Below, one piece after another: positions 6,479 through 39,660 of a stretch of 64,000 nt of DNA. The notes beneath the pieces are model-generated. The model had not been told where the DNA came from. It saw only the letters and a program-made list of their open reading frames with translations, and did not search any database. The translations under genes were made by a program, and so were the position numbers. Origin of the DNA: Antedon mediterranea (lineage: Eukaryota > Animalia > Echinodermata); NCBI RefSeq assembly GCF_964355755.1, contig NC_092673.1:16030948-16094947 (forward strand), given 5' to 3'. The stretch's first letter is position 1; each line of letters begins with the position of its first letter.

Positions 6479-7813
6479 CAGGGCTCGAAATTTACTTTTT
6501 TTTCGACTAGCAAACTTTGCTAGTTGTAAAAAAATTAACTAGCAAAATCAGCAGCATAACTAGCAATCACAATTTTTTTCGGTAAAATAGTTAAATTCTA
6601 CACAAATCTGAATTTATTTAGGTGTAGACCTAGGCCTAGCTTTTAGGTGTAGGCCTAGCTAGCTAGGCAAAGCTGTAGTAGTAGTAGTACTCTTTTTAGC
6701 CAAATTAAAAAAAGATCAAGACATGCTTTCATGCTAGCCAAATCATGGTCGTTTCGGCCTATGGACGATTCGTCCCACTTTTTTTAGGTTGAAACATCAA
6801 ACTTTTAAAATTTGAAGCGGAACAAAATTGACTAGGCCTATGTATAAAATATTATTGCCGATGAAAAAACTGAGTTTTATATTGTTTATATCCAGACGTA
6901 ATTAAAACATTAAATTTAATTGCCACCGAGCGAAATTGGTAGGCCCTAAACTAATCCGTCCAAGCTACGCCCGCCGTCTCTCGCGCTCCACTCGTACGTC
7001 TCTATCCAGGAAATTCCCTATCGCACGAGAGAGGCATGATGTTGGAATAATAGTGGGCTGATCAATAGTTTGAAAACAGCTTACGGCATTTCTTAAGTGA
7101 ATTTTTATTCAACGTATTCTTCTTTGATGAATCCTTTGCCCATTGCAGTGTATATCCATGGAGTATACTCCATGGTATATCAGTAATTAAAGTTGTGATG
7201 CGAAAGTGTGTGTAATTTAATTCCACAGGTAAACAATAGGCATAAGCAAATCCATCGCACAAACAACAGGTACCTCGTGGTGTGCCGAGGAGACGTTCTT
7301 CTCGAGCGCGAGATCATAAACAAAATTGGAAGAGTCCATTAAGTGGGGGGTGTTTACTATTTACGAATCTATTAAATACGCGCTTTGACCACTGTGTAGG
7401 CAAAATATTTATTTCGTTAAATCCCTAAATTGATAATCGCGTATTCTGTAATCACGTGACTGATGATGTAATCCTTAGCGACGTACTAAATGCACATGCT
7501 TTTGTGTTGGGGGAAAAGCTTGCTGTTTATAATGCACATCGTTAACAACTATGCTACCACATGATTCACGGTGCTATTCGCGTTTCCTTGACGTAAATTG
7601 GCGGCGTGTAAATGAAACAATTGTTTTCACCAAATTGGTTCCTATTAGCCGTTGTCGACATAGCGATTGGCGGCTAGCGTGGCTAAGCTAAAAAGTACGT
7701 ATTTTTTCAAAATTCACACTAGCAAACATTTGCTAGTTTTGAAATTTTCAACTAGCAATTATCAAGAATCTACTAGCAAAATGCTAGTTTGCTAGCGTGA
7801 ATTTCGAGCCCTG
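6479..7813. mobile_element. Non-autonomous TIR element, hAT-like (CAGGGCTCGAAATT...AATTTCGAGCCCTG)
   Basis: TIRs are clear and CATCT flanks both sides. A truncated second copy lies at about 21420-22430. Confidence 0.85.
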
Positions 7814-7912: not shown

Positions 7913-8483
7913 AAGAGAATGTGTAGGCTTACTTTTACACTAGAAGCTGTCGGCATTAATAATTGTTAAATGAAGACACTGTATTTTTGCAATGGAAAGG
8001 TACGTTTTTAACAATTATTTCAAACAAAAATAACCAGCTCCAATATGTGTTGATATTATTGAAATATGTAACTATTAAAAACAAATTAAAATGTTTGAAT
8101 AGTTATATTGACATACATATATATAACATACTTTATAATCAGAATTTATAGTTCAAACAAAAAGAAAACACTTTGATTTTAAGATATTCTTTTGAGAAAA
8201 ATACTTCAAACTTTCTTAAAAGATTATAAAATCCAAAATTATTTCTTTCTTTCTTTAAAAATTATGAAATCATAAATATTACAATTAAAGCGCTTATTCT
8301 CATTAAATATAATAATAATAATATTTCCATCAATCATCATTCTCATTAAATACACGGGTATAAATGGATTATTTCTTACATTTTAACAGGAAACATTTGG
8401 TAGAAGCTTTGTCAAGGAATGATTTGAAAACAATTAAACAAATCTGTAAGACGCAACCAGATCTTCTGAAATCTATCAATGAG
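7913..8483 (+). CDS. Gene 1 start exon (7913-7999, ATG 7992) and N-cap exon (8390-8483): MERKHLVEALSRNDLKTIKQICKTQPDLLKSINE
   Basis: Canonical splice sites with a phase-2 join (AG+G). Both exons are conserved in the paralogue at 58189-58631. Confidence 0.8.
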
Positions 8484-11400
8484 GTATAAAAACAGATATA
8501 TTTTTATAATATTATCAAAGAAGAAATTCTTTTCATTAAAGTTTAAAATTATAGAGGATGTAATTTTATTTAATAGTTTAAAGCTTTTTTACTTAATGAA
8601 TTACAATTCTTTTGCATTATCACACTGATGATGGAGGTATAACCTGCATATACTGATTAACCACATTAGGCTAAAAATAATAATATAAATACACACTGAT
8701 GATGGAGGTATAACCTGCATGTACTGATTAACCACATTAGGCTAAAAATAATAATATAAATACACACTGATGATGGAGGTATAACCTGCATGTACTGATT
8801 AACAACATTAGGCTAAAAATAATAATATAAATACACACTGATGATAGGGGTATAACCTGCATGCACTGATTAACAACATTAGGCTAAAAATAATAATATA
8901 AATACACACTGATGATGGAGGTATAACCTGCATGTACTGATTAACCACATTAGGCTAAAAATAATAATATAAATACACACTGATGATGGAGGTATAACCT
9001 GTATGTACTGATTAACCACATTAGGCTAAAAATAATAATATAAATACACACTGATGAAGGAGGTATAACCTGCATGAACTGATTAACCACATTAGGCTAA
9101 AAATAATTTGCTAGTGTAATAGGCTAACATTCTATAGATATGCTGTGGTAAACCATTCTATTTTGTTCTACTCATTTATTAATAATGATAATTATGATTA
9201 TTTACCACAATATTTAGCAGCAATTGTTGTTGTTTGTATTGACAAAAAACAAACAATTTCACATAATGTCTGTTGTCAGTATTTATAAACTTTATTATGA
9301 TTCCTTTCCAGGATGGTAACACTCCATTACATTCATATCTGGAGAGAGGATACCCTACCTTAGCAATAGTGACTTGTCTCATTCAGCATGGGGCACCAGC
9401 AACATTGCAAAATAAGGTAATGTACAGGGATTTGCTAGTGTAATAGGCTAACATTATATAGATATGCTGTGGTAAACCATTCTATTTTGTTCTACTCATT
9501 TATTAATAATGATAATTATGATTATTTACCACAATATTTAGTAGCAATTGTTGTTGTTTGTATTGACAAAAAACAAACAATTTCACATAATGTCTGTTGT
9601 CAGTATTTATAAACTTTATTATGATTCCTTTCCAGGATGGTGACACTCTATTACATATATATCTGTGGGGTAGATATACTGCACCTAACTTAGAAATAGT
9701 GACGTGTCTCATTCAGCATGGGGTACCAGTAGCATTGCAAAATAAGGTAATGTACAGGGATTTGCTAGTGTAATAGGCTAACATTCTATAGATATGCTGT
9801 GGTAAACCATTCTATTTTGTTCTACTCATTTATTAATAATGATAATTATGATTATTTACCACAATATTTAGCAGTAATTGTTGTTGTTTGTATTGACAAA
9901 AAACAAACAATTTCACATAATGTCTGTTGTCAGTATTTATAAACTTTATTATGATTCCTTTCCAGGATGGTGACACTCTATTACATATATATCTGTGGGG
10001 TAGATATACTGCACCTACCTTAGAAATAGTGACTTGTCTCATTCAGCATGGGGTACCAGTAGCATTGCAAAATAAGGTAATGTACAGGGATTTGCTAGTG
10101 TAATAGGCTAACATTCTATAGATATGCTGTGGTAAACCATTCTATTTTGTTCTACTCATTTATTAATAATGATAATTATGATTATTTACCACAATATTTA
10201 GCAGTAATTGTTGTTGTTTGTATTGACAAAAAACAAACAATTTCACATAATGTCTGTTGTCAGTATTTATAAACTTCATTATGATTCCTTTCCAGTATGG
10301 TTACACTCCATTACATACATATCTGGAGAATGGATATACACCTACCTTAGAAATAGTGACGTGTCTCATTCAGCATGGGGTACCAGTAGCATTGCAAAAT
10401 AAGGTAATGTACAGGGATTTGCTAGTGTAATAGGCTAACATTCTATAGATAAGCTGTGGTAAACCATTCTATTTTGTTCTACTCATTTATTAATAATGAT
10501 AATTATGATTATTTACCACAATATTTAGCAGCAATTGTTGTTGTTTGTATTGACAAAAAACAAACAATTTCACATAATGTCTGTTGTCAGTATTTATAAA
10601 CTTTATTGTGATTCCTTTCCAGAATGGTAACACTCCATTACATTCATATCTGAAGAGAGGATACCCTACCTTAGCAATAGTGACTTGTCTCATTCAGCAT
10701 GGGGCACCAGCAACATTGCAAAATAAGGTAATGTACAGGGATTTGCTAGTGTAATAGGCTAACATTATATAGATATGCTGTGGTAAATCATTCTATTTTG
10801 TTCTACTCATTTATTAATAATGATAATTATGATTATTTACCACAATATTTAGCAGTAATTGTTGTTGTTTGTATTGACAAAAAACAAACAATTTCACATA
10901 ATGTCTGTTGTCAGTATTTATAAACTTTATTATGATTCCTTTCCAGGATGGTGACACTCCATTACATATACATCTGAAATATGAATATCCTTACTTAGAA
11001 ATAGTGAAGTGTCTCATTCAGCATGGGTCACCAGTAGCATTGCAAAATAAGGTAATGTACAGGGATTTGCTAGTGTAATAAGCTAAAATTCTTTAGATCT
11101 ACTGAAATAAACTATTCAGTGAGAGAAAAAAGTAAGCCCATTAACAAAAATCAAATTTTATTAAAACAAACCAAATTAAAATAATAACTAAACAGTTATA
11201 TATGATTTATGATAACTGATTTAAAGTATACAGTTATCCATCACATAACATTAATGTTTTTTCTTAATGAACAAAAACAATCTACTTGTAATTTTTTATA
11301 TTCAGGTGAATCAGTATAATTTTGTTTAAATACTTTTTACCATAAAATAAATATATATTGCTCAATATGTAGCTGTAAAGATAATAACAATTGAAAATGG

Positions 11401-14400
11401 TCTAATTAATTATAAATATGAAATAAAATGTATGTTGACAAATAATAAAATAGCAAACAAAAATGTTTGTGTTATTGTTAACAAAATTAATAGAATCTGA
11501 TTGTAATAAAAAAAGAATTAGTTAGTGGTAATAACCTGCTCCTTACCTTACAAAAAAATACTTCTGTCAGTATATCCAGCTAATTACAGTTTGAATATGG
11601 CCTTAAAGAGATCCTTTTCCAGCATTTTTTTTTGCAAACATTTTGCCACAAATGGAAGAGAAATGTAAATAATGTTTAGTTTATAGTGGTTTCCAAAATC
11701 TAAAAATGTTTGAGCAATGCAATTGGAAAAAGAAATTTAACATGAAATTATTCTTTTCAAACAGTGCCGTATCTTATCTTATGACTTTTTGGAAAAAATG
11801 ATTCTATAAAGTTGCCAGTTAAAATGTGATATACTAGTAAGTGCCCACAGATGGTTCTCGAATACATGAACTTTGGTAAATAACTGAAATTGTCTAAGTC
11901 GCACTGTACACAAAGCAAATGAATACAGATATGTTGGAATTTATGTAGTCAAATATAATTGTCATGCGGAGAATTACCTTAATTTTGTTTATTACATGGT
12001 ATTGTTCACCAAATTCCTGTCTTGGTACATTTTATTATGGGATGGTATCAGACTTCATGATATGATTTTCATTAAGGCAAATGGTTTAAACTAAATGTGT
12101 TATCGTTAATATCTAACTTAGCTTAATTATGATATTGGTTTCATTGTGTTAAAAATCAGTACTGAAAGTATTTACCAACTTTCTCAGATTTTAATGATTA
12201 CTTACATTAAGTAATAGGCTAACAATCACTAGATCTGATCCATGGTAATATATTATATTTTGTTTTCATTTATCAATAATGATAATTAATATTTTATCAC
12301 ATTATTTAGCAGTAATTGTTGTTGTTTGTATTTACAAAAAAAAAACCCAATTTCACATAATGTCTGTTGTCAGTATTTATAAACTTCATTATGATTCCTT
12401 TCCAGGATGGTAACCCTCTATTACATGACTATCTGGGGAATGAATATACACCTACCTTAGAAATAGTGACGTGTCTCATTTAGCATGGGACACCTAGTAT
12501 CCCCATTTTACACTTTCTCTGGGAAAAAATTAGAAACAAGTGTTTCTCAACTGATTTGTGTCATATGGGGTCTATATATCCACCAAAAAAAAGTTCCAGC
12601 TCATCTGGCCTAGGGAAAGCCGCCATTTTGGATTTTCAAAATGGCCGCCATAAAATACAGGTTTTTGCTCATATCTCCTCTTCTACATCATGCATGGAAA
12701 TGATTTTGGTGGCAAAGTGTATGTTTTGAGGGTCAAGGAATCTAAATACAGCATTTTGAAGTTCACTCAATGACCGCCATCTTGTTTTTTCAAAATGGCC
12801 GCCTTAAAATACAGATTTGTGCTTATCTCAGCTTCTACATCATGTATAGACATGGGAAAATGGAGGTTTTGACGGTCAAGGAATCCAAATACAGCATTAA
12901 TTTGAATTTCACCCAATGGCCGCCATTTTGAAAATCAAAATGGCTGCTATAAAATTTACAGATTTTTCCTCATATCTCAGCTTCTATATCATATGAACGT
13001 AATTTTGGTAGAAAAATATATGTTTTGAAGGTCAAGGAATTCAAATATAGTATTTTAAAGTTCACCTAATGCCCGCCATTTTGTTTTTCAAAATGGCTGC
13101 CATAAAATTTACAGATTTGTCCTCGTACCTCAGCTTCTACATCGTGCATGGAAATGATTTTGTTGGCAATGTTTATGTTTTGAGGGTCAAGAAATCTAAA
13201 TACAGCTTTTTGAAGTTCACTCAATGACAACCATTTTGATTGTAAAAATGGCCACCATAAGCTACAGGTTTTTGCTAATTTATGAGCTACTATGATTATG
13301 ATTTTGCTAAGCCTATGTTTTGAAGGTTACAGAATAAAAACAAAATTCAGCTTTTGAAATACAGTTGGAAAGTGATGACGCGAATAAGTCAATATGTTGG
13401 TGATAATATATGGGAACCACAATGATTATGACCCCAGGAGATACTGTACACAAGAAGATATCAGCGATGTACTGTAACTATATCATTCGCGTGAAGAACC
13501 TAAAAATAAAATATTCTAAAAAAGTTTGTTAGACGACATTTTAAGATATTTTCCAAATCCTAAAGAGAAACATGGCCAACTTTAGTTAAGCATATTCCAA
13601 TCAGATACATTATAGATAAAGCAAGTAAAGCAATTTAAAGCAACATATCTTATGTGACTGAATGGATGGTTACCTAATACACTGGGGACTAACACTACTT
13701 CACCATAACTGGTCTGGATAATGCGATAACTGGACAAATCGACGATAGTTTATGCCGATCATTCTTTTTTATCCAATTAACATGTCAACAGTTTATACAA
13801 TGGTACAGCCACTCTGAAAACGTATATCTAGCTGCTCATCTACCAGTCATAATAATCAGACACGGAGGAGTTTATCTTTTCAGGAGCTTTCTTGGTTATA
13901 TTGGACATACTGGTGGGTTGAGGTTTTGAAGTTGTGCATAACCTACTTTAAAGAGAGCTGTATATTCTAAAGCTCTTAGAGGATGCAGCTATGTATCATA
14001 TAATGATGACACGAGATGAGGATGTACCATTTTGTCTCCAGATATAGACACAGTATAGGACAATTGACTATGATGGCCAATATGCCTGAACGACAAATTT
14101 CCATATACATACAATACAAGATGTTCCAAAAGAATGGATATCATGCAACGTGTTATAATGGTGAAGAATCAGTTTTCAGACATGAGCACAATAGAGAAAA
14201 CCTTATGTATCTTGAAATTTGTCTTTCAGCATTTCCAGATATAGCCTTTCACTTTTGGCATTTTGGCCATGACCAGCTGCTGCAAATATAAAAGCATACT
14301 GTAGATGCTATATCTGAACCTGGAGCTCCCAATTGCACAATCACGCCTAAAAAGTTATACCATCTAATGATACAGCCACACCTTAAATGTTCTTGATATC

Positions 14401-17400
14401 TTTTTGACTTTCAGAGAAAGCTCTTAAGAATCTTTCGAGTTTGACGACAAATGGCAGTTTTCTTTCTCTAACTATTTGCATTACTTTACGTCACATTGGT
14501 TGATCGAAGGTTATTAGGATGGCAGATAAGCAGCTAGATATAAACATAAATGCAGACCATTTAGGGTGACTAGTGTTAATCTCCCAGTGTATTACCATGT
14601 ATTCATAAGATATTACTTGCTTTATCCATAAGTTGTACTTTTAACTGCAAGATGGCCATGCTTCTCTTTATATTTGGAAAATATCTTTACATGTCTATGT
14701 AACTTCTTTAGAATATCTTGTTTATTAGTTTCTTCTCGCGAATGATAGTTACAGTACACTCTCTGGTATCTTCTTGTATACCTCTTTGGTCGTAATCAGT
14801 ATGGAACTCGATCTTGTGATTAACTCACGACGTTGAGATTGTGATAGCAATAGATCTCGGAGACTAGACAAAGGGGATTGTACATAAATGTTGTTATTAT
14901 TATATGTTGTGCCAGTTTGATTGGGAATTTTAAAACTATTACTGTATTTAACAAACTGTATGCAAAAAAAAGCAACATCTAAAGCCAGTGGAGCAGTAGC
15001 CTTCAACTATAAAGTTTGGTCCTAAACTTAGTTATCAAAATCATGTCTTCATTATGTATATGAGCTACGAAATTAGCAAAACCTGTATTTTATGGCGGCC
15101 ATTTTGAAAAACAAAATGGTGGCCCGGTTTTTAAATGAACTTTAAAAAAATGCTGTATTTGAAATCCTTGACCCTCAAAATATATACATTGCCACCAAAA
15201 TCACTTCCATACATTATGTGGAAGCTGAGATAAGAGCAAAAATCTATATTTTTATGCTGGCCATTTTGAAAAACAAAATGGCGGCCATTGAATGAATTAC
15301 GAAAATGCTGTTTTTCGATTTCTTGACACTCACAACTACACTTTGTCACTAAAATCACGTTCATACACGATGTAGAAGTTGAGATGAGTACAAATCTGTA
15401 TTTTATGGCGGCCATTTTGAAAAACAAGATGGCGGACATTCAGTAAACTTCAAAATGCTGTATTTGGATTTATTGACTCTCAAAACATATACTTTGCCAC
15501 CAAAATCATATCCATACATGATGTGGAAGCTGATATATGAGCAAAAATATGTATTTTATGGCGGCCATTTAAAAAATCCAAAATGGCGGCTTTCCCCAGG
15601 CCTGATGAGCTGGAACTTTTTTTTGGTGGATATATAGAACCTATATAACTCAAATCAGTTGAGAAACACTTGTTTCTAATTTTTTCCCAGATTGGCCCTT
15701 TTTAGACTTAAAATAGGGATACTAACCAGTAGCATTGCAAAATAAGGTAATGTACAGGGATTTGCTAGTGTAATAAGCTAACATTATATAGATCTGCTGA
15801 AGTAAACCATTTAATGAGAGAAAAAAGTAAGCACATTAACAAAAATCAAATTTGATTAAAACAAACCAAATAAAAAAATAACTAAATAGTTATATATGAT
15901 TTATGATCTGATTTAAAGTGTACAGTTACCTATCATATAACATAAATCTTTAATTTTCTTAATGAACAAAAAAATCTATTTTTTTAATATATTCAGTTAT
16001 TAATTAACAATTATTGACAACGGTCTAATTAATTGTAAATATGAAATAAAATGCGACAACTACTAAACAACTAAAAATGTTTATGTTAAAAAAATTAATA
16101 GAATCTGATTTTAATAAAAAACGATTATTAATTAATAATGTGCTCCTTCCCTTATCTTACAAAAAAAATGCTTCTGTCAGTCTATCCAGCTAATTATGAA
16201 AATGGCCTTAAAGAAATCCTTTTCCAACCTAGGATCTTTTTGTGCAAACATTTTGCCACAAAAGGAAGAGAAATGTAAACAATGTTTTGTTAGTTTTCAA
16301 AAACTAAATTGTTTGAGTAATGCAATTTAAAAAAGAAAAGTAATATGAAATTAGTCTTTTCAAACTGAATGCTTTTAAGAAAAGTTCCGTCTCTTATCTT
16401 ATGACTTTTTTGAAAAAATTAATTCTCGCTAAAATATAATATACTAGTAAGTGCTCACAGATGCTTCTTGAATACAAGAACTTTGGTAAATAACTGAAAA
16501 TTGCACTGTACACATAGCACTACAGATATGATGGAATTTATGTAGTCAAATATAATTGTCATCCTGAGAATTACCTTAATTTTGTTTATTGCATGGTATT
16601 GTTCACCAAATTCCTGTCTTGGTACATTTGATGATGGGATGGTATCAGGCTTCATGATATGATATGATTTTCATCGGGGCAAATGGTTTAAATTAAATTT
16701 GTTATCGTTAATATCTAACTTAACTTAATTATGATATTGGTTTCATTGGGTGTTAAAAATCAGTACTGAAAGTATTTACCAACTTTCTCTACCATTGAGT
16801 ATAAATTCTAGAAGTTGCACTTAATTTACTGAAATTTCCCTTTACCTAAATTTATATGTAAATTCATTTAACTGCTTATTGGCCTCATACATTACGCTTA
16901 ACATCTAAACATTTGTTTGTACAATTTTATAAAATATGTATTAAATTATTAATGTTCAAATTTTGTGATTGATATTGTACAGTAAGTAGATTTTAATGAC
17001 ACTATACTACATTTGATCCATGGTAAGATATTATATTTTGTTTTCATTTATCAATAGTCGACATTTATGATTATTTACCACATTATTTAGCAGTAATTTT
17101 TTCTATGGTTTGGGTTGACAAAAAAAACCCAATTTCACATAATGTTTGTTGTCAGTATTATACACCAGCAACATTGCAAAGAAGGTAATGTACAGGGATT
17201 ATACAGGGATATTTCATTTGTTTCTGGATAGTATCCAAATATTATTAGCTTTGAAAGTTTATAGTAAAACTATTTGTTGTTTTATATTATGGCTCAAACA
17301 TTTTAACACATCTACCTACTGTTCCAAAGTAAACTTTTATTCAATTTATCTCTCTCTCTCTCAATGTTGAAGGCGGTAGACTATAAACGGCAGCGCTTAA

Positions 17401-29400: not shown

Positions 29401-32400
29401 CAACAACAGCCTCTTGAAGAGTGTGTGGTTAAATGTTCACTGTGAAAATATGCGCAAAACAAAGTTGCAGTACTGGCACACATACCTGTATAATGACATT
29501 GCACTCTTGATGACATCATTAGGGGAGTAATAGAACATTTATTTATATCATGTGACCCATAATCCTCCAATCAAATAAAAATAATCTACTTTGGGGTGTT
29601 ATAATATACAAATAATGAATGTTTATGAGTGCAATGTATTGAAAAATAATTTCATGTGATAACAGTAGAACATTTCATCTTTCACTAATGAATTTTTTGT
29701 TTCATTGCATGAATATAAAATATTCATTATTTGTATATTATCCATGACTAATGTTAATATTAAACATTTTCAGTAAGTTTTCGCCACATTAATTATCAAA
29801 GAATTTGTATATGAAAGTCTTTATTATATATCAAGGTCCACATACAATTTAAAATAATATTTGTTATGTTGTCAGAAGGCCTTAAAGAATATTAATTAGT
29901 CAATATCTGAATATTTTTGCAGATGTTCATAACACTACAAGCACTATACATTGTTGTGTTTGATCTCAGTAAACCATTGGATGATCTTGCTACTTTCATT
30001 GATTCAACTGAAGTAAGTGTTTCTAGATGCAATAAGGCATTGAGATTGAACAAATCTTCTAATTTATAAGAACATGCATTTTATGCATTAAAAACAGTTC
30101 CAAATAAGATGTAGTAATGAATGCTTTCAAAAACTAACCATTTCAAGTTTCACTGTGATTAAGTGTTTTCATAATTTTTTTTATACAGGAAACATCTAGA
30201 CATCATTGGACCAATCTCCAGTTCATATTATCTTACATCCTGTCAGTTTATTCTCATAGTCGTATTGTGGAAGAAGATGAAGAGAATGAAGTTGACAAAC
30301 CAACTATCCTTATTGTGGGTACACATAAGGGTAAGCTTGGTAAGACTGAAAAACAGCAAAATGATGAGGTTAATACTTCTTTTGTTTCTATATTATTATA
30401 AATAGCCACAACCAAAGATACATTGCAGTTGTAAATGTTTTTAAATATGTATTACTTAAAATAAATTACAAAATTGACACATTCTTATTATGATATAGGT
30501 GTAAACTGTTATTAAAATTATTTACAAACAGGCAGAAAAGGCGTTTAAAATTATTCAAGATGTGCTTAAAACAAAACCATATGGAAATCATGTCTACCAC
30601 AAATATTTTGCCATTGAAAACAGCCAACCAACAACAGATAAGAGCTTTAGTGATCTCAAACAAGTTATTGATGAACTTATGAAAGCTTTAGAAAAGCCTT
30701 TTCCTTTAAAGTGGATGCGTTTTCGATGTGATCTACATGATCTAAGAGGAAAAAAACACCCCTCTTTTTCTTTGTGTCCTTTAGAAGAGGTAAATGTTAT
30801 TTGTTTTGTTTTTGTTCTTTTTTTTCAGAAAAGAACATTTTGGGAAATATTAAGTCGCAATATATCTATCAAGTATCTAAAAAAAAAAAATTTATGTTTC
30901 CAAATATAAGTACCCTTTAATTAAAAAATGTCTATAGATAATTAGATTACTATATCCAAAACCATATTTTCATCTCAGATATTTGCTGCCATTGTTTTAT
31001 TTATAAATTGTGTGTTTGAAAATAATAAGGTAATTAGCCATTGAAATTCAATATTTAAAACTATTTTTTCATGTATTACCCACATGTTACAAAAACTGAA
31101 TATTATTTCATTTTTTTTTTATTCTGAATAATACTAATTATTATTTCTTTTAGATCAAAATTCTGAAAAGTAAGAATGGTATTGTTGAAAAAGAAAAATA
31201 CAAATCAGTCCTGCTTAACTTCCTGTACGATCTTGGTGAAATTGTTTACATGCCTGACAACAAATTACTAAGGAATAAAGTCGTGCTAGATCCGTTGAGG
31301 CTGGTTGAAATTGTCACCAAATTTGTAACTGTGGTTCCCCCAAAATATCCCGTAAGTAGACTCATGTAATGTCTTGAATTGTAAAAACGTGTTGCCGTAG
31401 TATAATTACTCCTGTTCTGTGTAATTTATTATTCCTTATAGCAAAGAGTTTGCCTTTAGTAATATTTGATAGAGATGCTTAACATTTTCTATAGATAAAA
31501 AAAAGTCATTTGTAATTTATTGTAATTTTTTTACAAGTTTTAATTATTTCACTTTTAATATTCTGCTTTCAATCTATTATAATTGAAGCACTATAAAAGT
31601 GAATAGCAAACTAACTTGGAGTAATTTCACAGTTTAACCCTTTCACTGCGTGTATTACCGGGTATAAACATGTCGTTGATCTCCATATAACCATCATTAC
31701 CGAGTACACTATATTTTTGATAAACTTAAATATATTTGCAATGTTTTAAAACTATTTTCCTGCACTACATGCAACCTCTATATTTTTTAATATCGTCGTA
31801 TCGTACCATTTTCTTACTCCAAACGGTAGACCAACCTTTTACCCACCTCAAAAATATTTACAAAATTATCTCATTTAGTAGGTTTTTGCAATTTATTAAA
31901 AATCACCTGTCTCTCAATGTTATGCACAGTGAAAGGGTTAAACCACGATACTGTATTATACCAACACATGGTTCATCCATATTCTAAATGCTTACTGTAT
32001 CTATTGCCGTCATCCTCACAACTGTTATAAACACAAAATACGATGCATAATTGATAGTTGGTGTTTTTTTTAGTCCGCTAAATTTAGAAGATCTTTTGAT
32101 AAGCTTGACAAAGGCATACTGGAAGAAGACTTGTTGCGAAAATTATGGAAAGATAGTAAAGTTGATGACGAAAAGAATTTTGAGTTCCTTGTAGCACTGA
32201 TGATTCAATTCGGTTTTATATGTGAGAGAAAGACAACCAGTAGCCAAGATGTGGCAAGTACATCTATAGTAGGTTATGTTTCTTTAATCTTTCATTTGAT
32301 GCATGTAAGATTTGGAATAAAAAGTATTATTCTAATAGTTTGGATTTAAATGTTGAGACAAAGTTTGAATAAACTTTCTAGTGAAAATGGCTAAATGATA

Positions 32401-35400
32401 GAGTATCTTTAGTTTGTTTAAAGTAATCTAAATGGCATCGTTACGAATTAACAATTTCAGAAATCAGTTGGAAAACGATCCTTTTTTGTACCACTGCGAC
32501 TTGCTATCAAGACAAGTCAAGTGAGACAAGTACCTGATGATTCACAATCTATCAGCAGACCTATCTATTACGACTTTGAGGGATATCTGCCAGACGTATT
32601 GTTTCCATATTTAATTATTGAATTCCTTAACAAATTTCAAAAGGAAGGAGTTAACCCAATACTCGCATGTAATTATGCAGAACTTTACCTCGACGAAAAT
32701 CATCATGTGACTTTGTCTATTGACAAATTTATTACTAAGAATGATGAGCGAAAGTTCTTGTTAAAGGTAATATATAATCTCAAATGTTCAATAAATATCA
32801 CTAAATTATGAAAGTTAAATATTGTTGCTTAGTCTTTCCCTGATCTGTCATGTCAGAATCTACTTTAAATGCATATAAAACTAAAACTAAATTCTGATAA
32901 CAAAACATTACATCTATTTTTACTTTCTAGATGGCTATTAAAAGAACAGATTCTTTTGATGAAACGAGTAAAGAGGAGCCTTCAGCTGAAGCATGTAAAT
33001 TGGTATGTATCTATACCAGTTACGTTCTCTATCTATTTGGAGGTAGTTTATGAAAATACACATAGAAAGTTTTCTCCTCAATTTTTTGTCAGGTTTGCTT
33101 GATGTCTGAAAATTTCTGCATATACTGATTTTAAAAACCAATTACATATTACTTTCCAACATTGCATTGTATAGTATAATAATGAATGTTTATGAGATGG
33201 ATGGTAAGAATATTTTATGAGTTGAAAGATTGACTGCACTATTTTTAACAAAGCAGAGCCGAAAATAGAGCAGTCAATGAATAACATATTCTCTCCATTC
33301 AAAGAATACAAAACATTCATTATTTATTTTATAACACACCTATTTTTTATTAAATTTATCCATCGTAAATCAGTGACGAATGTTAGGCCCGGGAAGCTAG
33401 GTCATTTAAAAAGGCGGTGATCCAACTTTGGACACGGAGTAGAACCGTAAACAGCGTAAACAAATTACATCCATGTTCTCTTTTATTTTTGTAATTGAAT
33501 TGTAAGTAATTTTAATATGTATCTGCCTATTAAAAGATTTATTCCCAATCAAGTTTTCAGATTTACACCATAAATCTAAAAACATTGCCTGCCTCACATT
33601 ACATAAAATGTCTAACTTTGTAAGCTACTGCACCATTGATGTGTTAAATTCAATTAAATTCAAATCAACATTAAATTTATATCTTTAGGTTTTGTCAACA
33701 GTTGAGAAGTCATTCGAGCAATCTAAAGATGGTGGTAGAAGAGGGATTCCATTCAAGAGATGCATTCCTTGTCGGTGTAGTGATCAATTAGACAAAAAGC
33801 ATTTTCAAATTCTTAAAGATTTCCAATGCAGGAAGTTTACGTGCACAGAAACTGGCAAGTCTGTTACGATGGATGTCACATGTTACAAGCGGCTGTTTGG
33901 AGGTAAGAGTCATTAAATTTATTTATTTTTATTAAGTACATTTTCATTAATACACTACTTTCTTCATGAAGGACTCTCACTCATCCCTAGAGCACAGGAA
34001 ACTGAAAAACAAAAGGCTATTTCTGTTCTATAAACAATTTGTGACCTATTTCTGCAAAAAAGTGACATGTTTAAATAATTATAGAATAGAGAAAGAGGAT
34101 ACTGTACCTTATTTGAAAATAGACATATTTGATAATACTCTTCCAGTAGTAGTACAACAATCATTATTGATAATCTATACATTGTTACAACATGCTGCTA
34201 TTAGCTGTGATATCTTCATTCCTCTTACCAGTAGTAGTACTATCAAAATCATTATTGATAATCTATACATTGTTACAACATGCTGCTATTAGCTGTGATA
34301 TCTTCATTCCTCTTACCAGTAGTAGTACTATCAGAATCATTATTGATAATCTATACATTGTTACAACATGCTGCTATTAGCTGTGATATCTTCATTCTTC
34401 TTACCAGTAGTAGTACTATCAAAATCATTATTGATAATCTATACATTGTTACAACATGCTGCTATTAGCTGTGATATCTTCATTCCTCTTACCAGTAGTA
34501 GTACTATCAGAATCATTATTGATAATCTATACATTGTTACAACATGCTGATATTAGCTGTGATATCTTCATTCCTCTTTCCAGTAGTAGTACTATCAGAA
34601 TCATTATTGATAATCTATACATTGTTACAACATGCTGCTATTAGCGGTGATATCTTCATTCCTCTTCCAGTAATAGTACTATCAGAATCATTATTGATAA
34701 TCTATACATTGTTACAACATGCTGCTATTAGCTGTGATATCTTCACTCCTCTTACCAGTAGTAGTACTATCAGAATCATTATTGATAATCTATACATTGT
34801 TACAACATGCTGCTATTAGCTGTGATATCTTCACTCCTCTTACCAGTAGTAGTACTATCAAAATCATTATTGATAATCTATACATTGTTACAACATGCTG
34901 CTATTAGCTGTGATATCTTCATTCCTCTTACCAGTAGTAGTACTATCAGAATCATTATTGATAATCTATACATTGTTACAACATGCTACTATTAGCTGTG
35001 ATATCTTCATTCCTCTTACCAGTAGTAGTACTATCAGAATCATTATTGATAATCTATACATTGTTACAACATGCTGATATTAGCTGTGATATCTTCATTC
35101 CTCTTACCACTAGTAGTACTATCAGAATCATTATTGATAATCTATACATTGTTACAACATGCTGCTATTAGCTGTGATATCTTCATTCCTCTTAGTCTTA
35201 CCAGTAGTAGTACTATCAGAATCATTATTGATAATCTATACATTGTTACAACATGCTGCTATTAGCTGTGATATATTCATTCCTCTTACAAGTAGTAGTA
35301 CTATCAGAATCATTATTGATAATCTATACATTGTTACAACATGCTGCTATTAGCTGTGATATATTCATTCCTCTTACAAGTAGTAGTACTATCAGAATCA

Positions 35401-38400
35401 TTATTGATAATCTATACATTGTTACAACATGCTGCTATTAGCTGTGATCTTCATTCTTCTTACCAGTAGTAGTACTATCAGAATCATTATTGATAATCTA
35501 TACATTGTTACAGCATGGTGCTATTAGCTGTCATATCTTCAGTTCTCTTACCAGTAGTAGTTCTAGTAGAATCACATGATGTAATCACACCCCACTAAAA
35601 AAAAGTACAAATGATCAATGTTATTATAGGATAATATCCTGTTGAAGTCTAAAATTATATTTGAAAACCAGAACTTCTAAGTCTGTACTCTACACTCTTT
35701 AATATAATTGAGACAATCCCCAAATCATTTCCTTTTGTTATGTTCTGTAGCAATAATGTCACTCGGCAGTGACAATACCTGCTAAATGTGGTGTTCACAA
35801 AAGTAAATTGTTGCCTATATAACAACAGTTACACTTGTGATAACATGCTCTGTCATAGCTTGCATCCTAGCATATAGTATTGAATGAATTATTGTTTTAT
35901 CATTATTTCATTTGTTACAGCTGATGATGTTGGGACATCTGGTTCAAATCAAGGTATGTTAAATTTACTATAAATAATATTTGGATAATACTATTACTCT
36001 ACTAATTTCCTTAAGAAGAACTCCCTCTCACCATTTTTAGAGAGAATCATTATTTTAAACTTTTTTGTGTGTACTTATATATTGATGGTATCATACTCAT
36101 TTTTCCATTCCAGAAATCTCAGAGAATGAATTCCTGCAACTGTTAACTGATACAGCAGCATGGTTTGATGGACTTGGATATCTCAAAATATTGAAAGTTT
36201 TATACAAAGACCATCTTTCAAAATCGAATGTAGAGGTGGAAAGAGCTAGAAGTGTTTGGGATCTGCTACAGGATTTAAGAGCCTCAGGAAGTTTGGGTCC
36301 ATCAAACCTTACTATTCTATATGACACAATAACAGTAACCAAACAATTTGGCTTCCAGTCAAACGTTGAGAATCAACCTCCAGAAAATATTAAGGATCAT
36401 GTAGTATCAATGTTGACACCTTTCAGACAGAAGGTTTATCAACTGGGAGTAAAACTTACGAAGGATGAAGTATCAACACTTGCCAGGTTATTTAACAATA
36501 TATTGGTAAAGACATATCAAGACAGCTGGAGTATGATTATGGATTTTGAACATAGAGGGATCATTGATAAGGATTTCACAAAGTTGGTTGAGTTTCTTAA
36601 AGTTTTAGAACAAAATGGAATGACAAAAGCTAGGAAGATTTTCATTGATGGTTGGTTGGTTTATTTGTTTTTAGTTCATCATCATGGTTCATTGTTAAAA
36701 CATATAGTACATACTGTAGTGCACTACAATCAAGTAAAAGTACTGTAACAAATTAAACATTTTAGGATTCAAATTATTATGATGTCCCTGTTTGTCTGTC
36801 TGCTGTTATGGTTGATTAAGGATATCAACCAACATTCGGTTAAATGGCAATTAGGCTGAATTGAATGACAAGTTAGTAAAATAACAATAATATGCTCAAT
36901 GAGTCCAATGGAAAATGAGCTGAACTGAAACGTATGTGTGTATTCCATGCTATTATCCCTATCAATCAGATTGACCCAAACCTTTGGAACATAATAATAA
37001 TCTGCATTTTAAATTTGTGAATGCCTCTCAATTCCTACAAAGCCCAGCATACCATTTGAGGGTCAAAAGACCGACTCTGGGGCTGATTCAGATCTTTACT
37101 ATTGCAAGAGGATCATTAAGTTGTATAAGAAAGCCACAGGTTGACAGCGTACCCATCACCACCTCCATGCCAATTAATGCACCCGGACACTTCATAAACT
37201 TGAGTTTAGATTATGTGACTTCTGCCTATCCCATTAATAACTTACTGAAACTAGAGAATGCAAAACTCCACCTACAATATAATTTTCCTACACATTAAAA
37301 TCTCTCCCTGAGAAAAGTGGTTTTGTTTTTTCAGCAAGGTAATTTGGCCTAATTGCACTGCATAACAAATTAATGTGAATTTTCCATGGTTGAAATCCTG
37401 CCTCAAATTGGGCTGAAGAAGGGAGTCTTTTTTAATCATTTCTTTTTTTTTAAATCATTTGACCCTGCCTGTTCAAAATTGAATTACATTATGATGGATA
37501 ATTTTGGCCAAATTTCAGTTTAAAAGTGTGGCCTGGCAGGATATATAAAGAAAACATTTATAGTAGGTTGTGACCTTGACCTTTCACGGAAGCATCCACC
37601 TACGCAGAATGAAAAAAAAAAAACAAGAAGTCAACAAGTAGTCTACATAATTAGATTTATTCTAAATAAGTCTTAAGTATATATGTCTTCTGGTATAGGT
37701 ATGTCTTCTGGTGCAGGTATGTCTTCTGGTGCAGGCGCGTCTTCTGGTGCAGGTGTGTCTTCTGGTGCAGGTGTGTCTTCTGGTGCAGGTGTGTCTTCTG
37801 GTGCAGGTGTGTCTTCTGGTGCAGGTGTGTCTTCTGGTGCAGGTGTGTCTTCAGGTGCAGGTGTGTCTTCTGGTGCAGGTGTGTCTTCTGGTGCAGGTGT
37901 GTCTTCTGGTGCAGGTGTGTCTTCTGGTGCAGGTGTGTCTTCTGGTGCAGGCGCGTCTTCTGGTGCAGGTGTGTCTTCTGGTGCAGGTGTGTCTTCTGGT
38001 GCAGGTGTGTCTTCTGGTGCAGGTGTGTCTTCTGGTGCAGGTGTGTCTTCTGGTGCAGGTGTGTCTTCAGGTGCAGGTCTTTCGTCTGACACAGGTGAAT
38101 GTCAAGGTAACTATCAAGGCACTAGAGCAACACTCTACAGCAAAAAAATATATTATTGTTGATATTTAGCCAGGAGTTTTTGTATACAATATTAAAATAG
38201 ACTAGAAATCTTTATTACCATTCTATGCTAAGTGATTGTAGTTGTTTATCTAGGGTGTAATCTAAATTGATTAAAATCTATATTTATCAGGCAACCTTAA
38301 AATAAATAAATAAATAAAGTTTTTCTTTGACTTTCTCCAAATCTATTCCATTCATTTCTTTTTCAGGTAGACATTATACATTAATCCTGTTTGTTGCTTA

Positions 38401-39509
38401 TTGTTCACACAATATCAGCTTAGATAATTAAACTTTCCAAAATGTTATCACAAATGTTCGTTTAAAGTTTATATGAATGTTTCTATGTAATAGTCAGCAG
38501 TTATCGTATAGCATATACTTAAAGACGTATTGTCCCCCAAAAACATGAAAAATGAAGATTAATTAAATCAGACTTTGAATAGGTTATTATGTAGTTTTAA
38601 AAAAGTAAATCACTTCCGAAGAAAAAAAACGGGAAAAAATAATGTTTTCACTTATAAAATAACATGATAAATGGTTAAATTCAACCAAAAATCCATTGGC
38701 TGGCAGCCAATTTGACCATTTTTTGCTTTAACTTCCAGTTTTTTCAGGTAAATAATTTTGTTTTCGATCCAATTTTTGGTCAAAGTCAATAACTATTAGT
38801 GACATTAAAATGGCATATTCAACAACAAAAATTTAAAAAAAATATTTTCAGGGGGACAATACATCTTTAAATCAACAAACATCCAAACTATTTATTTTTT
38901 ATTTAATCAAATTTATTTAATTTTAACATAATATTAAATGTTTTAGGTTTAACTGTGTTCATACTTTATTAAGGGTTAGGGTGTTTAATTGTTTAATTAT
39001 TTCTCACCATATCTATTACTTAATGAGCTTACTTTGTTGTTATTTCAGGTATGCATCATGGCGGGTAAGTATTTTCCACATATGTACTGTTATTTGATCA
39101 AATTAATTTTGTTAATAAATTGGCACTTTGTGTGTGTGATTTACAGAATACATTAAACTTTTATTTTCATTTCATTTATTTTGCCATATAGAATGTATAA
39201 AAAAACAATTAAAAGAAAACAAAATCAATAAAAAAGAAAAAGGTTACTCTCTGCCTCCCCACAAAGGCCGACAGGATTACCAAAAGCATAAGTAAACACT
39301 GTCTAGTGGCTCTTGTCAAGGTCAATACAGGGCTGGTGCTAATCAACTAAAGCATGTTTTCTAGTCTACGTTATTCAATTTCAACACGAAAGCAATCAAA
39401 TTGAAAGAAACAACAATTTTAATGTTAATACTTTATTAGAATTTTAATTATTTAATTGTACCTTGTTATTTCTAGTCAAAAGGAAAAGAGACGTTGCAAG
39501 TTGTTATAA
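7992..39509 (+). CDS. Gene 1: ankyrin repeat-Roc-COR-tandem DED-CaaX (Roco family) protein, multi-exon, up to about 1337 aa
   Basis: Manual GT-AG splicing gives a phase-consistent frame: 7992-7999, 8390-8483, 9312-9416, 9636-9746, 9966-10076, 10296-10403, 10623-10727, 10947-11051, 17679-17763, 25073-25165, 25532-25691, 25988-26073, 26407-26471, 26772-26865 (or 26914-27010), 28694-28848, 29923-30012, 30189-30368, 30532-30789, 31154-31351, 32074-32268, 32461-32766, 32931-33002, 33689-33902, 35921-35953, 36114-36650, 37699-38094 (extent uncertain), 39049-39064, 39476-39509. The sum is 4014 nt, divisible by 3. Motifs: TPLH ankyrins, GQEGVGKT, TDGI, WDHGGQ, VGTHK, and COR LNFLYDLGEIVY/VVLDP. Confidence 0.88.
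8621..9106 (+). repeat. 71-bp tandem repeat, about 7 copies
   Basis: Unit cacactgatgatggaggtataacctgcatgtactgattaaccacattaggctaaaaataataatataaata. It directly abuts the ankyrin array. Confidence 0.95.
9312..9416 (+). CDS. Ankyrin cassette exon 1: DGNTPLHSYLERGYPTLAIVTCLIQHGAPATLQNK
   Basis: ttccag|...AATAAG|gtaatg, 105 nt, phase 0-0, matches the ankyrin consensus G-x-TPLH...IV..L...GA. Confidence 0.9.
9636..9746 (+). CDS. Ankyrin cassette exon 2: DGDTLLHIYLWGRYTAPNLEIVTCLIQHGVPVALQNK
   Basis: 111 nt, phase 0-0, same splice sites. Confidence 0.88.
9966..10076 (+). CDS. Ankyrin cassette exon 3: DGDTLLHIYLWGRYTAPTLEIVTCLIQHGVPVALQNK
   Basis: 111 nt, phase 0-0, same splice sites. Confidence 0.88.
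10296..10403 (+). CDS. Ankyrin cassette exon 4: YGYTPLHTYLENGYTPTLEIVTCLIQHGVPVALQNK
   Basis: 108 nt, phase 0-0, same splice sites. Confidence 0.88.
10623..10727 (+). CDS. Ankyrin cassette exon 5: NGNTPLHSYLKRGYPTLAIVTCLIQHGAPATLQNK
   Basis: 105 nt, phase 0-0, same splice sites. Confidence 0.88.
10947..11051 (+). CDS. Ankyrin cassette exon 6: DGDTPLHIHLKYEYPYLEIVKCLIQHGSPVALQNK
   Basis: 105 nt, phase 0-0, same splice sites. Confidence 0.88.
12406..15746 (+). pseudogene. Ankyrin pseudo-exon 7 (12406-12494 plus 15725-15746), with an in-frame stop and split by a transposon
   Basis: Reads DGNPLLHDYLGNEYTPTLEIVTCLI* with CAG>TAG at 12481-12483. The exon end ACCAGTAGCATTGCAAAATAAG|gtaatg resumes at 15725. 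Confidence 0.9.
12495..15724. mobile_element. Non-autonomous long-TIR DNA transposon, Academ-like (TAG...CTA ends, 3-bp TSD ACC)
   Basis: Ends are TAGTATCCC and GGGATACTA. Inverted arms of about 700-800 bp are built from subrepeats of about 120 bp (aaaatggccgccat). A further inverted segment pairs about 13440-13700 with 14560-14780. ACC is duplicated at both flanks. No intact transposase is seen; the superfamily call is from recalled end/TSD rules. Confidence 0.75.
17163..17184 (+). pseudogene. Remnant of ankyrin cassette 8 (acceptor and 5' part deleted)
   Basis: The intron motif gttgtcagtatta is joined almost directly to caccagcaacattgcaaagaag|gtaatgtacagggatt. Confidence 0.8.
17679..17763 (+). 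CDS. Ankyrin C-cap exon: DGNTLVSVLESNGWIEEQSKTEILNFLE
   Basis: aatag|...G|gtaagt, 85 nt, phase 0-1. An equivalent 85-nt exon lies at 60836-60920. Confidence 0.82.
21306..22561. mobile_element. TIR element with TTA TSD (Zator/Harbinger-like) containing a truncated copy of the 6479-7813 element
   Basis: tta-GGCCAAATAAAAAAATATACTTGTTAAGCGTCAC ... GTGACGCTTAACAAGTATGTTTTTTTATTTGGCC-tta. Confidence 0.8.
22663..23282. mobile_element. MITE with TTAA TSD and AG...CT ends (Kolobok-like)
   Basis: ttaa-AGCCCCATTCCCT ... AGGGAAGGGGTCT-ttaa. Confidence 0.7.
25532..30789 (+). CDS. Roc GTPase domain exons of gene 1
   Basis: G1 GQEGVGKT (25532-25691), G2 TDGI (25988-26073), G3 IWDHGGQ (28694-28848), ALYIVVFDLSKPLD (29923-30012), G4 ILIVGTHKG (30189-30368), G5-like FAIENS (30532-30789). 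Confidence 0.92.
26914..27010 (+). CDS. Duplicated alternative acidic exon IDMKPPTDDDGIVVDDNNDDYKTDDNNDYNND (paralogous to 26772-26865)
   Basis: Intact tag| and |gtatgt sites, phase 0-1 like its twin, and only 48 nt downstream of it. Confidence 0.75.
27312..28135 (+). mobile_element. DINE/HINE-like (Helentron-associated) non-autonomous element, nested in a TTAA MITE (about 27112-28222)
   Basis: TTTTTAGTCGCGTG ... (GTCT/GTCG)n blocks ... CACGCGAC ... GGCTGTTGGCC hairpin, then TTGTTTTT. The flanks match the 38523-38866 MITE. Confidence 0.75.
31154..33902 (+). CDS. COR domain exons of gene 1
   Basis: LLNFLYDLGEIVYMPDNKLLRNKVVLDPLRLVEIVTKFV; GILEEDLLRKLW; LMIQFGFIC; FFVPLRL; YYDFEGYLPDVLFPYLI; Cys/His-rich end (CIPCRC..H..C..C). 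Confidence 0.88.
31638..31937. mobile_element. piggyBac-type MITE (300 bp)
   Basis: ttaa-CCCTTTCACTG ... CAGTGAAAGGG-ttaa. Confidence 0.85.
34140..35562 (+). repeat. 88-bp intronic tandem repeat, about 16 copies
   Basis: Unit accagtagtagtactatcagaatcattattgataatctatacattgttacaacatgctgctattagctgtgatatcttcattcctctt. Confidence 0.95.
36114..36650 (+). CDS. Single exon encoding tandem death-effector-domain-like (death fold) units
   Basis: 537 nt, phase 1-1. Two helical units of about 85 aa: LKVLYKDHL...VWDLLQDLRASGSLGPSNLTILYD and FRQKVYQLGVKLTKDEVSTLARLF...MIMDFEHRGII, resembling the DED pattern FRxxLxxIxxxLxxxE...LF. Confidence 0.72.
37683..38094 (+). repeat. 18-bp tandem repeat GTGTGTCTTCTGGTGCAG (about 22 units), probable coding linker (GVSSGA)n
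   Basis: Near-perfect array. The frame is compatible with the phase-1 flanking exons and ends LSSDT G|gtgaat at 38094. Confidence 0.85.
38523..38866. mobile_element. MITE with TTAA TSD (Kolobok-like); relatives at about 27112-28222 and, inverted, about 57652-57968
   Basis: ttaa-AGACGTATTGTCCCC ... GGGGACAATACATCT-ttaa. Confidence 0.82.
39049..39509 (+). CDS. Terminal micro-exons (39049-39064, 39476-39509) encoding GMHHGGQKEKRRCKLL*
   Basis: Junctions tttcag|GTATGCATCATGGCGG|gtaagt and tctag|TCAAAAGG...TTATAAG|gtatag. Phases 1 and 2 fit, and the product ends in basic residues plus a CaaX box. Confidence 0.72.
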
Positions 39510-39660
39510 GGTATAGTATTTAACTTTAAATTTGAATTTGTTTCTAAAGTCATGCATTTTTTTTTGCATTGTTTTTCTATTCAAAGACTAATGTAATTTC
39601 AAAATATAAGAAATCATTTGTCTTTTTTCCTTTTACAAAACCTATAAATGCTTTTTGTTG

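Follow-up and report, generated by a model that had tools for sequence, protein, structure and literature searches.

The gene at 7992–39509 on the forward strand of the window (the whole stretch of 64,000 nucleotides of Antedon mediterranea DNA that was analysed) is read, at moderate confidence, as a kinase-less Roco that likely serves as an innate-immune sensor, switch and adaptor, a function predicted from its parts. Since hypervariable ankyrin exons are joined to a Roc-COR module and to a tandem death effector domain (DED) pair common to NLRs, the gene is likely a fast-evolving immune sensor.

Rebuilding the 28 exons from the coordinates 7992–39509 gave a 4014-nt frame of 1337 amino acids plus one stop, exactly the length that an earlier sequence-only reading had reported, and 27 of 27 introns are GT-AG. 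The predicted order is six ankyrin repeats, Roc, COR and tandem DED, and paralogue P0006 begins at the same Met. The features, all on the + strand, are as follows.

7913–7999, +: start-codon exon (ATG at 7992), from the sequence; a copy 92% identical precedes gene 2
8390–8483, +: exon 2, capping the ankyrin module N-terminally; 72% to gene 2 / P0006
9312–11051, +: six phase-0 ankyrin exons, one repeat each (9312–9416, 9636–9746, 9966–10076, 10296–10403, 10623–10727, 10947–11051), from profile matches and the rebuilt frame
12406–15745, +: inactivated seventh ankyrin exon with a stop in codon 26; 3′ end at 15725–15745
17145–17200, +: second dead ankyrin unit, internally deleted with the donor end retained (blastn 17163–17200)
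17679–17763, +: exon 9, closing the ankyrin module as its C-terminal cap; P0006, P0025 and P0103 have homologous caps
25073–25165, +: exon 10, linker from ankyrin cap to Roc; directly after the cap in paralogue P0103
25532–30789, +: Roc domain, exons 11–18, from Pfam matches and motifs (G1 in 25532–25691, then an acidic insert; G3 in 28694–28848; G4, Asp to Gly, in 30189–30368)
26914–27010, +: exon 14 duplicate, by sequence comparison
30532–33902, +: COR domain, exons 18–23; Pfam COR-A on exons, 91–96% to four paralogues
36114–36650, +: tandem DED, single phase-1 exon, from Pfam match and structure model
37699–38094, +: 18-bp repeat exon, Ser/Gly/Ala-rich linker with uncertain boundaries; weak match to the P0011 linker
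39049–39064, +: 16-nt exon, phase 1 to 2; acceptor 10.2, donor 9.2
39476–39510, +: candidate CaaX exon, basic residues, CKLL and stop; weak acceptor
43877–44027, +: competing last exon in phase 2, matching P0011 at 58% over 45 aa; AATAAA at 44269 and 44362
58268–63672, +: neighbouring gene 2, truncated by the window edge; contains two ankyrin exons, a cap and the beginning of a type A Roc

The earlier model omits the exon 14 duplicate (26914–27010) and the two dead ankyrin units. The duplicate as a whole is frame-incompatible with 26772–26865, but could be spliced in from an inner acceptor at 26936. At 28503 a further exon candidate was dropped for lack of a donor.

The ankyrin repeat domain was borne out by the three exons scanned, all above the Pfam Ank cut-off (24–25 bits against 21.1). 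The exons of the array are spaced by five introns of 219 nt each, and change amounts to 28/105 nt in the exons versus 7/205 nt in the introns (Fisher p 3.5e-9), i.e., exon variability is about eight times that of the adjoining introns. Amino-acid-changing steps are concentrated in the first 16 of the 35 repeat columns (19/25, p 0.002), and the same variable columns hold 6–9 different residues each across 21 Antedon repeats. These columns would lie on the concave binding face, and the variable repeats may bind a ligand. The dN/dS over the six exons is 2.07 and not significant (p 0.12). Because synonymous sites of the ankyrin exons, too, have changed more than the introns (4/26 vs 7/205, p 0.024), intron homogenisation accounts for part of the exon–intron contrast. 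Some 3.2 kb of inserted sequence, bearing inverted arms, splits the dead seventh exon.

In the Roc domain, the G1 (GxxxxGKT) and G3 (DxxG) motifs are intact. Single-exon Pfam matches were weak (Roc E 0.0019, COR-A 2e-6), but paralogue P0008, 94% identical over aa 475–999, passes both cut-offs, and the family profile against the PDB gave bacterial Roco and LRRK2 as best matches, in support of the Roc-COR module proposed before. COR comes directly after Roc, which qualifies the gene as a Roco. The absence of a kinase also held, since kinase-bearing proteins used as queries (E 1e-3) matched only the Roc exons in the 64-kb window. The G4 aspartate is the residue of guanine recognition. It is replaced by Gly in this gene and by Gly or Ala in all 16 Antedon type-B Rocs examined; type A Rocs and three Anneissia proteins retain Asp. 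Its loss means that guanine specificity may be relaxed; the position is variable among wider homologues too (Asp in 10/29 motif matches), so it is not strict in this Roco clade. The Roc-COR module would switch in a nucleotide-dependent manner.

The C-terminal region, previously read as a death fold, models as a tandem DED of the caspase-8/cFLIP type. The 178-aa exon scored 39.2 bits with Pfam DED (cut-off 35.9) in two stretches. Folded from a single sequence it reached a pLDDT of 49, and an alignment-based model was used instead (pLDDT 93.2, pTM 0.88), with two packed six-helix DEDs. Fold searching with this model placed caspase-8/cFLIP on top (TM 0.65–0.75), and the structural alignment to this type gave Z 17.0 and rmsd 2.6 over 165 aligned residues, while phmmer of the exon against the PDB returned no match. 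Searched against 1049 candidates, the exon matched five proteins only, at 43–78% identity (three NACHT proteins, one DED-only protein and one Roco), with no close caspase partner among them. In the DED tree, the pair falls in a 6-row clade (100/98) with the NLR DEDs of P0001 and P0003, and NACHT proteins match the window at the DED exon only. Partners of the pair can be predicted from fold and homology, and the output would be cell death or NF-kB-type signalling, the former suggested by the modelled fold alone.

The gene is one of an expanded, clustered set of crinoid Rocos, for which public protein models give 13 on one chromosome. Within the window a second gene starts at 58268 and matches RefSeq XP_071947615.1 at 97–100% identity over six coding exons. 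The tandem cluster is thus confirmed, and a multi-copy family is found rather than a single-copy housekeeping orthologue. In the Roc-COR tree the gene groups (SH-aLRT 100) with P0008, P0009, P0014 and P0015. These four paralogues are 91–96% identical in Roc-COR and carry other DED lineages, with pairs only 20–38% identical to that of the gene or not alignable. The Roc-COR and DED trees are therefore discordant, and the family exchanges parts.

That the gene encodes a genuine Roco scaffold for non-immune work (trafficking, development or regeneration), or that the family's shuffling simply follows neutrally from a tandem cluster prone to recombination, is unlikely but survives best among the alternatives. 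It fits the intronic tandem repeats that abound across the region (34 rows in the repeat listing) and the non-significant ankyrin dN/dS. Among the domains found on related invertebrate Roc-CORs, Death, CARD, caspase, TIR, HEPN, GT4 and NACHT favour the immune reading, and KIX, TAZ, FN3 and CAP-Gly are non-immune; relatives fused to OGFOD2-like and kinase domains occur as well. Algal ROCOs, as far as described in PMC11378527, also react to non-immune stresses. Neutral homogenisation, however, should not restrict change to one half of the repeat, in the same columns at other loci, and the DED pair is common to NLRs.

The ankyrin and Roc parts had been assigned to one gene across a 7.3-kb intron. 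A paralogous gene model supports this: XP_071948802.1 aligns at 75% over model aa 181–545, spanning the intron, and paralogue P0103 has the same ankyrin-to-Roc join. In addition, XP_071964198.1 and XP_071943867.1 have the order ankyrin, Roc, COR and tandem DED, all homologue architectures being automated gene models. The donor of exon 9, the best-scoring in the gene, opens the phase-1 intron, within which no exon candidate with strong sites was found. Comparing the N-termini of six paralogues with 11052–25072 yielded nothing convincing (best E 0.015). Splicing into one transcript is probable. The read sets X1, X2 and X5 cover all 30 bins, introns included, and none of the 15 read joints listed matches a model intron (624 further joints exist); for these two reasons the sets were treated as DNA.

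A locus of recent chimeric origin, or a copy in decay, with the ankyrin part transcribed separately from Roc-COR or the gene silent, is improbable. The gene's own product is missing among the homologues returned from public protein models, though the neighbouring gene 2 is annotated; two ankyrin units are dead, one exon is duplicated and a tail exon has lost its hydrophobic core. A stand-alone ankyrin model, P0037, lies in RefSeq on the same chromosome, and the three annotated linker-start paralogues (P0007, P0008 and P0009) have no ankyrins. All 28 exons are nevertheless free of stops and frameshifts, and the cap exon with its best donor is in the correct phase; the lack of strong exon candidates in the intron and the identical join of P0103 likewise tell against two separate units. 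The remaining alternative, an immune regulator of opposite sign in which a cFLIP-like tandem DED caps or sequesters NLR or caspase-8 DED assemblies with the altered Roc as scaffold, draws on the fit of cFLIP and viral FLIPs, nearly as good as caspase-8 (Z 12.9–14.6), on a v-FLIP-like second match in the structure-atlas search, on the lack of a catalytic effector and on the lost G4 aspartate, and is doubtful given that a decoy needs no hypervariable repeat domain and that the DED type is that at the NLR effector end.

For the sensor–switch–effector logic on a Roco GTPase, the DED fold, the NLR-common pair, the clustered multi-copy family and the hypervariable ankyrin exons all give indirect support. 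On the allorecognition role suggested before, evidence turned up on neither side. In the preferred reading as an immune sensor, recognition of a foreign or damage ligand by the variable ankyrin repeats would shift the dimer state of Roc-COR, leading the tandem DED to nucleate a DED assembly common to the animal's NLRs and caspase-8-type proteins. Diversity would likely arise from unequal crossing-over in near-identical introns, which would add, drop and swap entire repeat exons (phase 0) and entire effector exons (phase 1).

The gene differs from NLRs in having no NACHT, with a Ras-like GTPase in its place, and in its reversed order, since NLRs have an N-terminal death-fold effector and C-terminal repeats; its product is not an NLR. 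DAPK1 has the order kinase, ANK, Roc, COR and death domain. The ankyrin, Roc, COR and death-fold order is shared with it, but no kinase was found here, a tandem DED replaces the one death domain, and the gene is multi-copy and fast-evolving. Invertebrate DED-NACHT-LRR NLRs (PMC2575513; Antedon XP_071948965.1) share the same tandem DED type, 64–71% identical in the present comparison, and the logic of repeat, NTPase and death fold.

A role as variable immune receptors, functionally unproven, has been put forward for brown-algal LRR-ROCOs (Zambounis et al., PMC3341825; Teng et al., PMC11378527), and for Ectocarpus ROCOs the same genomic signature is the basis of that proposal (PMC3341825). As described in the accessible portions of those papers, they too have a kinase-less Roc-COR after a repeat domain with one phase-0 exon per repeat, are clustered and have some inactivated repeat exons. 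The Antedon gene differs in being animal and in its ankyrin, not LRR, repeats (the likeness is one of working principle only), in a C-terminal tandem DED swapped among paralogues and common to NLRs, and in positive selection on the repeats that is not significant over the six exons. By analogy, it is best read as an animal parallel of these exon-shuffling Rocos. Trichoplax has at least 17 ROCO genes with Roc-COR flanked by repeats and CARD/death domains (Civiero et al., PMC4104024); these have TPR/LRR and CARD/DD, and the main text of that paper contains neither the term DED nor ankyrin, and its accessible portions describe no repeat-per-exon array. In the AP-GTPase (Roc)-COR counter-invader proteins, as partly seen in Kaur et al. 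(PMC8195603), the GTPases are switches parallel to STAND NTPases; fast-evolving N-terminal repeats, a GTPase-COR switch and a variable C-terminal effector are shared, but those proteins are prokaryotic with LRRs. The suggestion of an undescribed concept is not supported, since repeat–Roc-COR–death-fold immune candidates have already been published from Trichoplax, brown algae and bacteria. A literature search confined largely to open-access main texts found this crinoid Roco family nowhere described.

If the immune reading is true, a deuterostome receptor family diversifies ankyrin repeats via exon shuffling, a mechanism so far proposed for brown-algal LRR-Rocos. Roco and NLR genes would trade one effector exon, which would be direct genomic support for Roc-COR and STAND as interchangeable immune switches. 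What the Roc-COR cycle controls in LRRK2 and DAPK1 could also be studied conveniently in such a simple kinase-less Roco, whose death fold would provide a read-out. Comparable candidates in other lineages likewise have a predicted function only. A bolder version, speculative and as a whole unlikely, would give feather stars a second, GTPase-based class of intracellular immune receptor beside NLRs, with ankyrin surfaces varied one exon at a time, much as in a natural DARPin library, tandem-DED exons traded between Roco and NLR genes and feeding one death-fold circuit, strict guanine specificity dropped, and a prenylation signal replacing a lost transmembrane anchor.

The CaaX anchor claimed for the C-terminus did not hold up well. 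The motif exists only if the exon at 39476 is used, and its acceptor scores 4.3 versus 11.6 for the in-phase rival 43877–44027. The rival is homologous to the transmembrane tail exon of the paralogues with the hydrophobic core deleted (KD19 hydrophobicity 0.97 vs 2.7–3.4 in five paralogues). None of the 13 same-chromosome Roco models has a canonical CaaX end, and the five tails checked are transmembrane-like. Since a donor lies 1 nt past its stop, the 39476 exon may be a cassette or internal exon. The CaaX tail is therefore doubtful, and the family-homologous exon 43877–44027 appears to fit better as last exon. A tail ending in that exon, with no strong anchor remaining, is plausible; a CaaX isoform is rather unlikely, and some other tail more so.

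CaaX-like ends occurred by chance in 3/879 acceptor-to-stop frames of the window (a scan whose threshold lies above the 39476 acceptor), so the motif is uncommon but not exceptional. Among DNA contigs over 38880–39640, one 95-nt X5 contig departs from the candidate exon by 7 differences plus a 12-nt insertion. Inspected manually with an incomplete difference list, it weakly hints that frame and stop are kept with the cysteine off the −4 position, and it may be allele or paralogue sequence. Another frame of the exon matched the P0002 tail over 9 residues without significance (E 2.9), and none of the plausible exons would bring that frame back.

The invertebrate Neuralized-Roc-COR-Death-TIR proteins, as far as they are covered in the available parts of PMC5094078 and PMC9334734, have a related Roc-COR. 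They differ in their other domains, and their tail is not homologous to the candidate CaaX exon. Nine members among the homologues end in Cys-x-aliphatic-Leu, so a prenylated Roco has a parallel, in a type that is conserved from centipede to amphioxus.

The predicted Roco gene lies in DNA that is AT-rich, rich in introns and animal in character. Rebuilt from coordinates alone, its 28 exons (7992-39509) give 4014 nt with a single, terminal stop and GT-AG borders at 27/27 introns, reproducing exactly the 1337-aa product of the sequence-only reading. The gene is real and likely intact, its splicing being predicted; at a near-copy of exon 14 (26914-27010) the frame must skip the copy or enter via an inner acceptor. 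Features of the window are:

5422-5553, upstream of the gene: leftover of another DED-type exon, matching homologue proteins P0004, P0042 and P0053 at 45-58%
6762-7812 (upstream of the gene) and 21421-22429 (in the 7.3-kb intron): CpG-rich dispersed repeat present twice (copies 81% identical) and probably representing a DNA transposon
12500-15724: insertion of ~3.2 kb splitting a seventh ankyrin exon, with inverted arms of 150-bp repeats, 81% identical; looks like a foldback-type element
36114-36650: exon of the predicted tandem DED
39476-39509: candidate last exon with the CaaX end
39661-43836: 57-bp minisatellite, 73 copies, with a 793-codon frame free of stops, most likely non-coding; separates the two candidate last exons
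43877-44027: rival last exon
54883-54934, minus strand: inverted 52-nt fragment of exon 14 and its donor, 94% identical; recalls reversed stray exons in Ectocarpus ROCO loci
56628-56675: matches the final 16 residues of the paralogue model P0012 at 94% identity; gene 2 probably uses it as a 5' untranslated exon, whose paralogue would have been joined onto P0012
58268 onward, plus strand: neighbouring Roco gene (gene 2), running off the window
59401: third ankyrin-type acceptor of gene 2 followed by unrelated sequence, a further dead unit

All three repeat exons scanned, out of six, exceeded the Pfam Ank cut-off. Roc and COR-A matches were weak on single exons, and both exceed the cut-offs in P0008, a paralogue sharing 94% identity with the product across aa 475-999; PDB matches of the family profile included bacterial Roco proteins and LRRK2. 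The Roc domain keeps GTPase motifs G1 and G3 intact. The G4 aspartate, which determines guanine specificity, is replaced in 16/16 Antedon Rocs of type B, the kind found in this gene, and retained in type A as well as in three Anneissia proteins; this position is also variable among wider relatives. Structure prediction for exon 36114-36650 from an 11-row alignment gave pLDDT 93.2, with TM 0.65-0.75 to the caspase-8 and cFLIP tandem DEDs. Structural comparison gave Z 17.0, with rmsd 2.6 across 165 residues, versus Z ≤ 11 for single death folds, and in this model the two death-fold units proposed earlier form a tandem DED. No kinase, caspase or NACHT was matched within the 64-kb window, in agreement with the claimed lack of a kinase.

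The ankyrin and Roc parts, assigned to one gene by the sequence-only reading, are separated by a 7.3-kb intron. The cap exon has the highest donor score of the whole gene, and its phase-1 end fits the phase-1 start of the exon that follows; no exon with strong splice sites was found in the intron between cap and linker. XP_071948802.1, the RefSeq model of a paralogue from this chromosome, shows the identical succession of ankyrins, cap, linker and Roc, with 75% identity to model aa 181-545. The order ankyrin-Roc-COR-tandem DED recurs in XP_071964198.1 and XP_071943867.1, on other chromosomes, and in an Anneissia model. Against the join, three close paralogues lack ankyrins in their annotation and P0037 is an ankyrin module annotated alone; the gene's own product was absent from the matches in homologue searches. 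A single predicted transcript is the probable arrangement.

The Roc-COR homologue search gave 26 matches (16 A. mediterranea, 5 Anneissia, 5 others). Thirteen of the 16, all public protein models, sit on one 36.2-Mb sequence. Four paralogues show 91-96% identity to the gene's Roc-COR, while their DED pairs are 38%, 21% and 20% identical to its own, one being unalignable. The closest DED pair (78%) belongs to P0002, with just 71% Roc-COR identity, followed by NACHT-LRR proteins (64-71%) and a DED-only protein (69%). Trees, with rows picked by hand among the homologues nearest to the window and all automated gene models, agree with these identities: in a quick tree of 23 rows, the gene's Roc-COR clade, with SH-aLRT 100, covers three DED lineages, and a 34-row tree unites its DED pair with NLR DEDs at support 100/98. 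Effector DED exons appear to have been swapped among Rocos and with NLRs, whichever the direction; the pair is a single phase-1/phase-1 exon, so swaps would be easy, a mechanism we infer. P0004 (XP_071947213.1), on the same chromosome, has one tandem DED at either end and a middle region that we take to resemble the TRADD-N domains described in PMC8195603, making it a candidate adaptor joining two DED lineages.

The six phase-0 ankyrin exons (105-111 nt), interleaved with 219-nt introns, form a tandem array 94% identical, followed by two dead units; repeat number per locus is six here, two in gene 2 and eight in XP_071964198.1. Minimum changes were 28 in 105 nt of exon versus 7 in 205 nt of intron (p 3.5e-9). 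Across the six exons, 25 non-synonymous steps on 78.9 sites compare with 4 synonymous on 26.1 (ratio 2.07, p 0.12), and 19/25 non-synonymous steps fall within the first 16 of 35 repeat columns (p 0.002). Columns after the TPLH motif hold 6-9 different residues (21 repeats, six Antedon proteins) and presumably face the usual ankyrin binding groove. Synonymous sites of the exons, too, have changed more than the introns (p 0.024), so intron-homogenising recombination accounts for part of the exon/intron contrast.

The CaaX reading depends on exon 39476-39509, with an acceptor score of 4.3 (leave-one-out, 21 model acceptors, range 0.5-14.3), a donor after the stop and no AATAAA in the 190 nt downstream. 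Exon 43877-44027, beyond the span first proposed, has equal phase, an acceptor of 11.6, AATAAA downstream and a product 58% identical to the tail of paralogue P0011 over 45 aa. Its hydrophobic core is gone (KD19, a hydrophobicity figure, 0.97), compared with 2.7-3.4 in the transmembrane-like tails of 5/5 paralogues checked. Cys at -4 occurs in 12/183 homologue proteins, nine from a distant Neuralized-Roc-COR-Death-TIR group, and in 1/13 same-chromosome models, with a non-canonical acidic residue; the CaaX anchor is therefore not a family trait, and a cassette isoform carrying it is less likely than not. The nine (P0080, P0093, P0099, P0104, P0107, P0114, P0130, P0133, P0179) are a conserved invertebrate protein of amphioxus, nemertean, sea star, centipede, octopus and mussel, ending in CxxC-x-aliphatic-Leu, a likely prenylation signal of which no mention was found in the accessible parts of PMC5094078 and PMC9334734.

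A Roc-COR profile search retrieved 11,433 representatives at E 0.001. In the best 150 (146 new proteins scanned), partner domains were Death, DED, CARD, caspase, TIR, HEPN, GT4 and NACHT, besides KIX/TAZ, FN3 and kinases. Ankyrin and tandem DED met on one Roco in at least four proteins, all crinoid, with crinoid-built and hence crinoid-biased profiles; amphioxus, among the matches listed, has ankyrin-Roc-COR and DED-Death-Roc-COR on separate proteins. In the portions available, published work proposes the ROCOs of brown algae as immune receptors: each LRR occupies its own exon, inactivated exons occur, and positive selection is reported (PMC3341825, PMC11378527). Trichoplax has at least 17 ROCOs, in which repeats are combined with CARD or death domains (PMC4104024). 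Also described are bacterial repeat-GTPase-COR-effector systems (PMC8195603), anemone and Aplysia genes that join Roc-COR to TIR (PMC5094078, PMC9334734), an annelid Roc-caspase (PMC11463336) and amphioxus DED-NACHT (PMC2575513); the available part of PMC6321704 does not mention Roco. A literature search of article texts found no account of this crinoid family. Judging by the accessible parts of PMC3341825, PMC11378527, PMC4104024 and PMC8195603, the receptor concept is already known and the suggested novelty narrows to details, namely the array of ankyrin exons, an exchange of effectors with NLRs and the change in the G4 motif. The product is not an NLR by membership; the NLR-like label survives in that it plausibly works like one.

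Six coding exons of gene 2 match RefSeq XP_071947615.1 (P0006, Antedon mediterranea) with 97-100% identity. This model has tandem Roc-COR modules, type A then type B, plus a transmembrane tail, and is either a genuine double Roco or two genes fused. The match of 56628-56675 to the P0012 end suggests that models of this family may be misannotated at their C-termini.
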